Part shown: positions 28,472 through 31,279 of the stretch, one piece after another | How the letters are laid out: the number at the start of each line of letters is the position of its first letter | Position numbering within the stretch: the first letter of the stretch is position 1 | Translations under genes and position numbers: made by a program | The notes under the pieces: model-generated | The model's database searches: none | What the model saw: the letters and a program-made list of their open reading frames with translations, nothing else | Told to the model about the DNA's origin: nothing | Assembly (NCBI GenBank): GCA_942493095.1 | Contig: OW818675.1 | Coordinates: 2,130,001-2,162,000, forward strand | Direction of reading: 5' to 3' | Length of the DNA: 32,000 nt | From: Candidatus Electronema halotolerans | Lineage (GTDB): Bacteria; Desulfobacterota; Desulfobulbia; Desulfobulbales; Desulfobulbaceae

Positions 28472-29665
28472 TCAGAGCCGGGACGAAGGAGATTCCTCCC
28501 GTTGGTCGGAATGACGGAGATATTTGTGGGCGTAGGCATAAATAAGCGCGTGACTCCACGGCCAGTATTTGTCCTGTCTCTCCAGTAGACCGTAATTAAC
28601 CAACTCATGCAACGCCTTGCGTGCCCTGTATTCATCGCCATCAAGATGAGCAGTTACCCGCTCATAGGTCAACCACGCACCTCCTCCCCACATAAAAGTA
28701 CCCCAATCGGCTTCACCCCATTTCACCGGCGTTCCCATCAATCCCAGCGCAAGTCGGGCATCATCACTGACCTGCCCTATGCTGCGCCGCAGAAGCAGGA
28801 CGGCATTCTCCTCCTCGTCCTCACCCAGCTCCTTGAACGGCTCCTGCTCCAGCCAGCGCAAGTAGTCTGCCGTATCTTCGCACATATTTCTGATATAGCA
28901 ACCGGCAATCCGCAGACCAACCGGCCAGCCGCCCAGTATCTTGCAGATGCCCTGTACGCTCTCGTCATCCGCCGCCGCACCGCTGTGCAGCCGGAAAACC
29001 TCTGCCGCAAACTGCTCCTCCAGCGGCCTGACCTGGAGCAGCTCGCCCCGCGCATCCGACCGCTTCCGGCTGGTGATCAGCACCCCGCAGCCGCCGCGCA
29101 CTTTGAGCAGAGCAGACAGGTCATCAGCCTCCTCTGCCCCGTCCAAAATCAGCAGCACCTGCTTGCCAGCCAGCAGACGGCGGGCCGCGTCCGGGCTGAC
29201 ATCCTGCTGCTGCTCGTCATAGCTGCGCACGACATGGGCAAGGGCCTCTTCAGCAGTATGCTTGCCATAAAAGGAGTAGAAGATGATGCCGTCCGGGAAG
29301 CGGTCAGGGGCTTCCTTGCCGGATGCCAGCGTCCAGACGGCCTGCGCTGCCAGAGCGGTCTTGCCCATGCCGCCCGGCCCGCAGAGCGTGACTGCCTTGC
29401 CCGGCTGGAGCAACGGCAGCAGCTCCTCCAGCACCGCATCCCTGCCCCGGAAGTGCTCGGCCAAAGGAGGCCGTTGCAGGGGAATGCCTTGGGCGGTGCG
29501 CGGGTAATGGTGGTGATGCTTTTCATAGCGGACATTGCCGGTTTGACTGAAGACGTTGCCGTTGCCCGTTACATGCTGTGTGTTGTTCTCCTGCTTGCCA
29601 ATGGCATTGTCTCCCTGAGCACTGTTCTGCTCGCCGCTGCCGGTGTTGGTGAAGGTGTCGCCCAT
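28472..29665 (-). CDS. NB-ARC / STAND P-loop NTPase
   Basis: Walker A GPGGMGKT, Walker B VLLILDGAEE, sensor-like ITSR and a GLPL-like GGWPVGL motif. The N-terminus is a Gly/Asn/Gln-rich tail with HHHH. The start at 29665 has GGAGGA upstream. The last about 30 codons read into a hairpin repeat. Confidence 0.75.
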   Translation of the reverse strand: MGDTFTNTGSGEQNSAQGDNAIGKQENNTQHVTGNGNVFSQTGNVRYEKHHHHYPRTAQGIPLQRPPLAEHFRGRDAVLEELLPLLQPGKAVTLCGPGGMGKTALAAQAVWTLASGKEAPDRFPDGIIFYSFYGKHTAEEALAHVVRSYDEQQQDVSPDAARRLLAGKQVLLILDGAEEADDLSALLKVRGGCGVLITSRKRSDARGELLQVRPLEEQFAAEVFRLHSGAAADDESVQGICKILGGWPVGLRIAGCYIRNMCEDTADYLRWLEQEPFKELGEDEEENAVLLLRRSIGQVSDDARLALGLMGTPVKWGEADWGTFMWGGGAWLTYERVTAHLDGDEYRARKALHELVNYGLLERQDKYWPWSHALIYAYAHKYLRHSDQREESPSSRL

Positions 29666-29775
29666 GTCTCCTCCATCAGGTTGAATGTGTTCAGCAATGC
29701 TCCCCAGCATACCCGAAGAGCAGCAGCTTGCGCACTGGAAATCTGCCGCCGGGCAAGGCAGGCGATATGCCCGGC

Positions 29776-29824: not shown

Positions 29825-29952
29825 TGCTTGAATTGGTAAATCCAGCGGTCCCCCACGGCACTGCCGCCGCTGGCCAATAAAACAGCTTACCCCGGCGGTC
29901 TGCAATTCCGCAGGCCGCTGCCTTTAAAACCTTTCAACACAAGGTGATTGAA

Positions 29953-30150
29953 ATGGCTGTACACGCAGAAGTTCTCAAGCCCGAAGCATCCTACAACGCT
30001 GCTCCTGATGCCTGCTGCCACGGCGGCGCTTATCAGGCTGCCCCCTGCGCCTGCTGTCATGGCGGCGCATACCAAGCTGCTCCTGATGCCTGCTGTCATG
30101 GCGGTGCCTATCAGGCTGCTCCGGCTGCCTGCTGCCACGGCGGCGAGTAA
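29953..30150 (+). CDS. RiPP precursor peptide with four tandem ACCHGG cassettes
   Basis: AAGGTG lies 6 nt upstream of the ATG. Sequence: MAVHAEVLKPEASYNA-(APDACCHGGAYQA)(APCACCHGGAYQA)(APDACCHGGAYQA)(APAACCHGGE). The cassettes differ mostly by synonymous codons. It sits directly upstream of the E1-like and YcaO genes. Confidence 0.75.
   Translation: MAVHAEVLKPEASYNAAPDACCHGGAYQAAPCACCHGGAYQAAPDACCHGGAYQAAPAACCHGGE
30001..30147 (+). repeat. 3.75 x 39-nt in-frame tandem repeat (coding cassettes)
   Basis: gctcctgatgcctgctgccacggcggcgcttatcaggct, gccccctgcgcctgctgtcatggcggcgcataccaagct, gctcctgatgcctgctgtcatggcggtgcctatcaggct, gctccggctgcctgctgccacggcggcgag. Confidence 0.9.
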
Positions 30151-30152
30151 TC

Positions 30153-30207
30153 GTTTCAGGTTGACCTGAAACAAGAAACGGGAGCCTGCCTGGAGCAGGT
30201 TCCCGTT
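30153..30207 (+). promoter_or_regulatory. two stable stem-loops immediately after the precursor stop (possible processing or attenuation site)
   Basis: GTTTCAGG-ttga-CCTGAAAC (30153-30172, 8 bp). AACGGGAGCCTGC-ctgga-GCAGGTTCCCGTT (30177-30207, 13 bp with one G-T). No U-tract follows. Confidence 0.45.
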
Positions 30208-30228
30208 GCCAAAAAGAGGTGCGCAAAG

Positions 30229-30315
30229 ATGCTGGCTGGCAGCAGAAGTTCTCAAGCCCGAGTCTTTGGCTGTACCGCATCCTGCGCCTGCCACCTCTGC
30301 CCCCGCAGAGAATGA
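30229..30315 (+). CDS. possible second short Cys/His-rich precursor (28 aa) or decayed paralogue of the first
   Basis: AGAGGTG lies 7 nt upstream of the ATG. Sequence MLAGSRSSQARVFGCTASCACHLCPRRE. Nucleotide homology to the first precursor covers ATG..GCAGAAGTTCTCAAGCCCGA and GCATCCTGCGCCTGCCAC, but the leader part is shifted by 1 nt. Confidence 0.35.
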   Translation: MLAGSRSSQARVFGCTASCACHLCPRRE

Positions 30316-30376
30316 CAGGAGGCCATCTGACGATGGCCTGCACCTCTCCCCTCAGCATACTCCCCCCGAACTCATT

Positions 30377-31279
30377 ATGCAAAGCACTTTTTTGCAGCTG
30401 CGCCGCTGCCGCCGGATACCGGTGCAGGAAAATAAAGTCCTGCTCAAGTCGGCGGACAAGTCGCTGGCTCTTGCTGCGGACAATATTCATAACCTGCTGG
30501 ACAGCCTGCTGCCTCTGCTGAACGGAACCTCCACGGAAAAAGAAGTGCTGGCCGCTCTGGTGCCGGAACTGAAGGAGGATGCGGCAGAGGTGCTCCGGCT
30601 CTTGGGCAAGGAAGGCTTCTTGGAGACTGGCGCGGAACCGGCCAAGCAGCTGGCTCAGTCCCTGATTATCCTGATCAGCACTGGGCGGCTGGGTGAGACC
30701 ATGTCCCGGCATCTGCGTCAATCCGGTGCGGAGCAGGTCGAGGAGATCGATGCCGAGAGCGCGGCGGGCGGGCACCTGCCTGACTCGCTGCAACAGGCAG
30801 CTATGGTTGTAGTCTGCACCGACCTGCCAAGGCCCGACCTCTGCGAGGCAGTCAACAAGGCGGCCTTGACCCTCAAGCTGCCGTGGCTGCTGGTTCAGGC
30901 TGACGGCAGAGACGGCTGGGTTGGGCCGCTGTTCATTCCCGGCGAGACCGGCTGCTACGACTGCCTGCGCCAACGACTGCTCTCCTGTTCAGTCAGCCCG
31001 GAGATCGACCAAGCCATCCATGCTGCCGCCCTGCGCCAGCCCTTCACGGAGAGTCTGGAACTGCTGCCGCCCTTCCTTGACCTGCTGGCAGCAATGGCTG
31101 CGCTCGAAGCCATCCGCCACCTGAGCGCAGTCAGCCCGCCGCTCACTTACAAGACCCAGATTCTGCTTGACTGCATCAGCGGCATTTCCCGCCGCGATGT
31201 GCTGCATCGGATTCCCCGTTGCCCAAGCTGCTCAACCAGCAGCGAGCAGGTCTCCCCAATCCAGCCTTTCAGCGGGTGA
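30377..31279 (+). CDS. E1-like (ThiF/Ocin-ThiF-like) cyclodehydratase partner with N-terminal RRE-like leader-binding region
   Basis: The N-terminus (VQENKVLLKS...LLDSLLPLLNGTSTEKEVLAAL) resembles a PqqD-like RRE. A central degenerate Rossmann-like segment is present, plus PGETGCYDCL and RCPSC Cys pairs typical of E1-like TOMM 'C' proteins. The frame stays open back to TTG 30206. Confidence 0.7.
   Translation: MQSTFLQLRRCRRIPVQENKVLLKSADKSLALAADNIHNLLDSLLPLLNGTSTEKEVLAALVPELKEDAAEVLRLLGKEGFLETGAEPAKQLAQSLIILISTGRLGETMSRHLRQSGAEQVEEIDAESAAGGHLPDSLQQAAMVVVCTDLPRPDLCEAVNKAALTLKLPWLLVQADGRDGWVGPLFIPGETGCYDCLRQRLLSCSVSPEIDQAIHAAALRQPFTESLELLPPFLDLLAAMAALEAIRHLSAVSPPLTYKTQILLDCISGISRRDVLHRIPRCPSCSTSSEQVSPIQPFSG

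Follow-up and report, generated by a model that had tools for sequence, protein, structure and literature searches.

Gene clusters for RiPPs, including TOMM/LAP, cyanobactin and lanthipeptide loci, are known to carry precursor genes in several tandem copies, and pseudogenes of truncated precursors are also known from them. A second familiar arrangement in RiPP operons is attenuation, in which a hairpin follows the structural gene and read-through extends into the enzyme genes. In a third, man-made, arrangement the leader is fused to the modifying enzyme: the engineered heterocyclases LynD-F and MicD-F (Koehnke et al. 2015) are active on substrates that lack a leader (PMC9052802). We report here the analysis of a locus in a genome of Ca. 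Electronema halotolerans, a species for which a closed genome has been described (PMC10030654), within a stretch of 32,000 nucleotides that we refer to as the window, in which an intact precursor gene is followed by a mini-ORF of 28 codons. In our view this mini-ORF is quite probably the relic of a tandem second precursor copy and not a second substrate, and it has probably been retained as a cis element.

The locus is a co-directional cluster encoding a 65-residue precursor, an E1-like (ThiF) protein, a YcaO protein, an MFS exporter, a nitroreductase-type dehydrogenase, a TonB-dependent receptor and a peptide/nickel-type ABC importer. It is unannotated and is predicted to be a cable-bacterium thiazole-peptide cluster for a Cys-Cys-His peptide. 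The genome relatives found in a search with the 20-nt repeat described below are Ca. Electronema aureum GS and Desulfobulbaceae UBA5173, which places the cluster in cable bacteria. The E1-like gene is rare, with 14 relatives among 5.8 billion proteins and only two 50%-identity clusters with E < 1e-30 among 1.84 billion representatives. Three of the ten genomes of the genus, this one among them, contain it, and a search of 109 other genomes of the family found no copy; the distribution of the cluster across genomes G000–G130 is patchy. One partial homologue (P0014) is named from Ca. Electrothrix sp. AUS3. We also note that a NACHT/NB-ARC-type STAND ATPase is encoded on the minus strand at 28472–29710, divergent from the precursor gene. 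Four loci were compared as DNA: three congeneric ones (this genome, Ca. E. aureum and UBA5173) and one distant one, the metagenome contig L010, with an E1-like protein that is 54% identical.

The live precursor gene (copy 1) occupies 29953–30150 on the forward strand, as do all of the features described below, and ends in a stop codon at 30148–30150. Its product consists of a short leader with an AEVLKPE motif followed by four Cys-Cys-His-Gly-Gly cassettes. Exactly one intact copy is found in this genome and in each of its two congeners. The leader-coding part contains copy A of a 20-nt exact repeat (family D2; 29965–29984), and selection on the copy-1 leader at the nucleotide level is marginal (6/7 versus 22/51 third positions, P = 0.048). 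The precursor of Ca. E. aureum (L003, 1095–1286) is two residues shorter, its last Gly codon having become TGA, and its fourth cassette ends in CCHG, not CCHGGE. Short precursors with the same Ala-Pro-x-Ala-Cys-Cys-His-Gly-Gly cassettes, two or three in number, occur in other assemblies (P0016, P0017 and P0018), and the cassette family therefore appears to extend beyond the sequences seen at this locus; the leaders of these three are Lys/Glu-rich and unlike the one described here.

The regions flanking copy 1 are also structured. The 5' untranslated region of the precursor (29893–29952) is 73% identical in the three species, compared with only 16% farther upstream, and it includes a perfectly conserved 10-bp hairpin at about 29896–29921. 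The stop codon is followed by two stable hairpins (30153–30172 and 30177–30207; for 30153–30207 the fold energy is -35.3 kcal/mol, z = -5.95). They resemble terminators or attenuators. In this genome no clear U tract accompanies them; Ca. E. aureum has one at its orthologous hairpin. A simple terminator scan found none.

Origin of the mini-ORF

The mini-ORF lies at 30229–30315, starting 78 nt past the precursor stop codon, and its ATG is preceded at a distance of 7 nt by an SD-like site (30215–30221) which aligns with the SDs of copy 1 and of the second L010 copy. It encodes a scrambled leader and a Cys/His tail, with four Cys and one His in the 28 residues. Copy B of the 20-nt repeat (30242–30261) is identical to copy A and lies 277 nt from it, a distance equal to 1 modulo 3. 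The repeat is accordingly shifted by +1 relative to ATG 30229, and the ATG frame encodes other residues there; its AEVLKPE motif instead falls in the frame of the E1-like gene, which is open without a stop from TTG 30206 to ATG 30377. An earlier reading of the DNA, made from the sequence only, was accurate in everything that it stated about the sequence. That reading had left three interpretations side by side: a decaying duplicate, a second substrate with a recoded leader, and an N-terminal extension of the E1-like protein.

No further copy of the repeat was found on either strand of the 3.2-Mb genome with up to three mismatches, and the repeat is therefore not a matter of chance. Matches to the 20-mer in an Anaerolineae contig and an Acidobacteriaceae contig look fortuitous; the surrounding DNA is unrelated and lacks the cluster. 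Sequencing or assembly indels were considered as a source of the frame scrambling and discarded, as independent Illumina contigs match without gaps: an RNA contig (X5 record 10) spans 29953–30318 with no difference after 30161, and a DNA contig (X6 record 13), which comes from a different study, spans 30259–30604 with none.

The origin of the mini-ORF is best seen by comparison with L010. Where the window has one precursor gene and the mini-ORF, L010 has two intact tandem precursor genes (636–833 and 919–1116), each with its own SD and a following hairpin, and the E1-like ATG comes at 1200. The two L010 genes agree at 93% of their DNA and encode identical proteins. Since two intact copies stand at the same place in L010, the mini-ORF can be taken as the remnant of copy 2. 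Alignment of the Ca. E. aureum relic with its copy 1 shows, from 5' to 3', the SD, a 6-nt loss which removes the ATG, the leader, and cassette 1 as far as the Cys-Cys codons; next comes a gap of 95 nt, a length not divisible by three, and beyond it 12 nt from cassette 4 and another gap. Mapped onto copy 1 in the same way, the relic in the window comprises a leader part (30240–30268), a cassette-1 remnant (about 30279–30291), the deletion junction (about 30291–30296) and a cassette-4 remnant (30295–30310) which forms a small hairpin. The junction is identical in all three Electronema species, which indicates that the deletion is older than their split. Just after the mini-ORF stop lies another hairpin (30318–30341; fold energy -22.2 kcal/mol, z = -4.06). 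Together with the pyrimidine-rich stretch behind it, this hairpin corresponds to the terminator hairpin and tail that follow copy 2 in L010, and UBA5173 has a hairpin at the same place after its relic.

The features expected of a pseudogene are thus present as regards descent and damage. There is an intact paralogue, an intact positional copy in L010, and a set of disabling lesions made up of the shared out-of-frame internal deletion of about 95 nt and lineage-specific losses of start, stop and frame. The part of the sequence-only reading that called the mini-ORF a duplicate is borne out by these observations.

These alignments suggest the following course of events. The ancestral cluster would have had two consecutive precursor genes, each with an SD, a leader, four cassettes and a terminator hairpin. 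In the Electronema lineage copy 2 would then have lost about 95 nt out of frame between cassettes 1 and 4, together with most of its 3' end, after which start, stop and frame would have changed separately in each species. In this genome two 1-nt shifts would flank the leader motif, one adding a nucleotide between the ATG and the motif and the other removing one directly behind it. A ribosome starting at the surviving SD and ATG would then read a scrambled leader and return to the old Cys/His frame and the old stop.

A close relative represented by an RNA contig (X5 record 11) provides a reference for these shifts. It has a strong SD and an ATG-ATG in frame with the leader motif, and it differs from this genome by an extra G after 30261 and two 3-nt losses. 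Provisionally, with five substitutions that are not itemized, its start, leader and Cys/His tail appear to share one frame and the same stop. Relative to this contig the shifts around the motif would compensate one another, which would explain why SD, ATG, tail and stop survive here while the leader is scrambled. Judging from this contig, a short intact ORF may be present in some strains.

Nucleotide conservation of the relic

The term decaying, which the sequence-only reading had attached to the duplicate, does not do justice to the conservation of the relic. Its core (30240–30311) is identical in the three species at 60 of 73 alignment columns (82%), and its leader part at 29 of 30, so that the relic is as conserved as the live precursor gene (79–82%). 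The corresponding three-way values are 38% for the hairpin spacer, 23% for the linker before the E1-like ATG, and 36% and 40% for third codon positions and fourfold sites of the E1-like gene, respectively. The binomial probability of the relic identity relative to neutral-like sites is about 1e-13, and outside the leader the relic still shows 72% identity against about 40% at such sites. The relaxed, neutral-like evolution of a pseudogene was therefore not seen (82% versus 36–40%), and conservation of this strength appears unlike that of a plain pseudogene. The relic looks to be under purifying selection at the nucleotide level, and a cis-acting role, as RNA or DNA, is the probable reason for its retention. 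The alignment consists of three near-identical sequences and has no power for covariation.

The alternative which survives best is that the relic is a neutral pseudogene whose conservation reflects recurrent gene conversion in short patches, with copy 1 as the donor, or a low local mutation rate. It is true that the most conserved part contains 20–27 nt shared with copy 1 in every species, that the DNA of the two intact L010 copies is similar enough to indicate that copies homogenize, and that the lesions differ between lineages as they do in pseudogenes. The relics are nevertheless closer to one another than each is to its own copy 1. Gene conversion is insufficient because the nine bases past the 20-mer are identical in the three relics and different among the three copy-1 genes, because the cassette remnant of UBA5173 departs from the cassettes of its own genome, and because the relic in this genome keeps cassette-4 sequence that has been lost from copy 1. 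The conservation of the non-leader part is likewise far above the neutral-like level. We consider this alternative unlikely.

Returning to the relic as a putative cis element, it lies between the precursor hairpins and the enzyme genes, and candidate roles are those of a stability element, a processing site or a binding site common to the relic and the leader-coding part of copy 1. Searches for a more specific function gave negative results. Rfam returned nothing near its thresholds for the relic; neither promoter-like sites on either strand nor a terminator were found at the relic; and the relic RNA did not fold clearly better than shuffled sequences (z = -1.2, -2.7 and -1.1). Nowhere in the genome do the 20-mer, the 29-mer or the core block have a copy in trans or in antisense, and RNA duplex and MFE searches revealed no shared partner. 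Contigs from RNA libraries of two studies connect the precursor to the relic, which fits read-through transcription, these being metatranscriptome libraries that may contain DNA.

Reading frames and the start of the E1-like gene

The sequence-only reading had proposed that orthologous clusters be compared to find which frame is conserved. In the lineages compared the relic is conserved in no frame, and its starts, stops and shifts differ from lineage to lineage. In Ca. E. aureum the leader and the Cys remnant share one frame which continues without a stop into the E1-like gene, and the sole candidate start is a GTG that lacks an SD, there being no ATG. The leader frame of UBA5173 has no start and carries TGA in place of a Cys codon; the ATG of that relic is out of phase, and its frame ends after 17 codons. 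In this genome the leader and the Cys remnant lie in different frames because one nucleotide has been lost after the leader part. Extended proteins in the databases add three more lineages, two with the motif in the frame of the E1-like protein (P0005 and P0007) and one with the relic in another frame (P0009). Across lineages one conserved nucleotide block is read in all three frames, and the block at 30299–30310 yields CPRR, APAE or LPPQR in the E1-like frame, depending on the lineage. The leader-frame differences between the two congeners comprise one synonymous change against six that are non-synonymous or create a stop. No small protein resembling the relic translation was found in the set of 5.8 billion proteins.

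The E1-like gene (30377–31279) can be assigned as the E1-like/RRE (RiPP recognition element) partner of a YcaO cyclodehydratase. The protein matches Pfam ThiF, its ThiF-like fold has an N-terminal RRE, and the adjoining gene matches Pfam YcaO. The true start is most likely ATG 30377, since the 13 homologues are conserved from Met1-Gln2 with similarity vanishing directly upstream, since in L010 an in-frame TGA stands five codons ahead of the ATG, and since an RRE-like domain of three strands and three helices directly follows the conserved Met. The last point comes from an AlphaFold model of the extended form P0005 (148 sequences, mean pLDDT 87.5); a model made with 14 sequences was unusable (pLDDT 48.7). 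We note that the E1-like ATG has no recognizable SD at any of the four loci (window 30360–30379, L003 1485–1503, L004 1485–1503 and L010 1183–1202), whereas the precursor SD is strong. This difference may represent a built-in ratio of low enzyme to high precursor.

Several observations commend the idea that the E1-like/RRE protein really begins with the leader-like segment, as an N-terminal extension which keeps the RRE site occupied in cis. The motif is in the E1-like frame without a stop in this genome and in Ca. E. aureum, and the distances from leader to ATG (135, 120 and 141 nt in the three species) are all multiples of three. Two database proteins, P0005 and P0007, have been called with the motif at their N-termini; P0005 begins Met-Met, and X5 record 11 has its strong SD before such an ATG-ATG. 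The want of an SD at the E1-like ATG in four of four loci points the same way, as do the engineered LynD and MicD fusions, which act on leaderless substrate (PMC9052802): the best structural matches of the E1-like model are TruD and LynD, followed by MccB and McbB.

Against this, an in-frame TGA separates the motif from the E1-like start in UBA5173, the TGA in L010 falls just before it, and P0009 has the relic in another frame. The only upstream start in this genome is the TTG, which lies within the terminator hairpin and has no SD. Protein conservation begins exactly at Met1, and an extension conserved as protein and engaged with the RRE was not found, the seven-residue motif being all that is shared and the rest of the linker lying in three different frames across lineages. 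Residues 1–46 of the P0005 model are without secondary structure, with no strand and pLDDT values of 35–59 in a model of much higher mean. P0005 and P0007, moreover, reflect an ascertainment bias: had their frame not chanced to be open, they would not have been seen. As a general feature of the E1-like protein the extension finds no support, given the stops, the want of a credible upstream start in this genome and the disorder of the extension in the model, and as an account of the conserved segment we regard it as improbable; in some relatives, such as those represented by P0005 and X5 record 11, it is possible.

We consider it very improbable that the 28-mer is a true second substrate, or that the mini-ORF works as a regulatory upstream ORF through its translation in this genome. 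What speaks for it is the intact SD and ATG, the four Cys and one His, and the manner in which the two 1-nt shifts compensate relative to X5 record 11 and keep the old tail frame and stop. Given two indels, however, an opposite pair of 1-nt changes arises by chance about half of the time. A functional precursor should have a start codon with a ribosome-binding site, a leader motif in frame with its core, and an ORF that is conserved in orthologous clusters. The mini-ORF has the first of these but neither of the others: in its ATG frame the motif is not translated, and the peptide lacks what the RRE domain of the E1-like protein would be expected to need. The absence of the motif from the peptide and the lack of conservation of the ORF together argue that there is no working second substrate. 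The sequence-only reading had itself named orthologues which lack the ORF, or carry stops in the ATG frame, as evidence against this interpretation, and that is what Ca. E. aureum, with no ATG, and UBA5173, with its stop after 17 codons, provide. No homologous small protein was found among the 5.8 billion searched, and for an upstream ORF the stop lies 62 nt from the E1-like ATG, too far for coupling. The second-substrate and extension readings may hold for particular relatives, those in which the start, the motif and either the tail or the E1-like gene are in frame.

Three recoding or antisense explanations were also set aside: selenocysteine at the in-frame TGA of UBA5173 (with a hairpin about 27 nt downstream), the signal being unconserved; a programmed +1 shift at the mini-ORF stop in this genome, which is unconserved and without slippery or SD context; and an antisense ORF, for which the minus-strand frame is open in two species and shifted here, as is typical of Ala/Cys/Gly-rich DNA.

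Comparison with known systems

The gene model that follows has one live precursor, one relic and an E1-like gene starting at 30377. For expression of the pathway this means that the 28-mer is not to be counted as a substrate and that a wrong enzyme start can be avoided; for the history of the cluster it means that two precursor copies were formerly present. A more specific proposal is that the relic has been co-opted, either as a leader-RRE fusion which pre-activates the cyclodehydratase in lineages that have SD, ATG, leader motif and E1-like gene in one frame, or as an RNA or DNA control element of coding origin which couples enzyme expression to the leader-coding sequence of the precursor in all of them. 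We put this forward as a rather doubtful suggestion. A true control site or a natural leader-enzyme fusion would bear on the balance of precursor and enzyme in RiPP operons, and the fusion, if real, would be the natural counterpart of the engineered LynD-F and MicD-F (PMC9052802).

Several lineages resemble LynD-F and MicD-F in having an in-frame leader motif at the N-terminus of the E1-like/RRE protein. The engineered enzymes are man-made and active, however, whereas the extension here is putative, docking is not predicted for it, and in at least one species it is interrupted. The likeness to RiPP attenuation lies in the strong hairpins past the precursor stop and in the RNA-library contigs that cross them into the relic; the difference is that a conserved remnant of former coding sequence stands between the hairpins and the first enzyme gene. 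As in tandem-copy RiPP loci, the second copy immediately follows the first and precedes the modifying enzymes, and it is intact in one relative. Unlike the degraded copies of such loci, the one described here is conserved to the same degree as the live gene in three species, while no reading frame has been kept.
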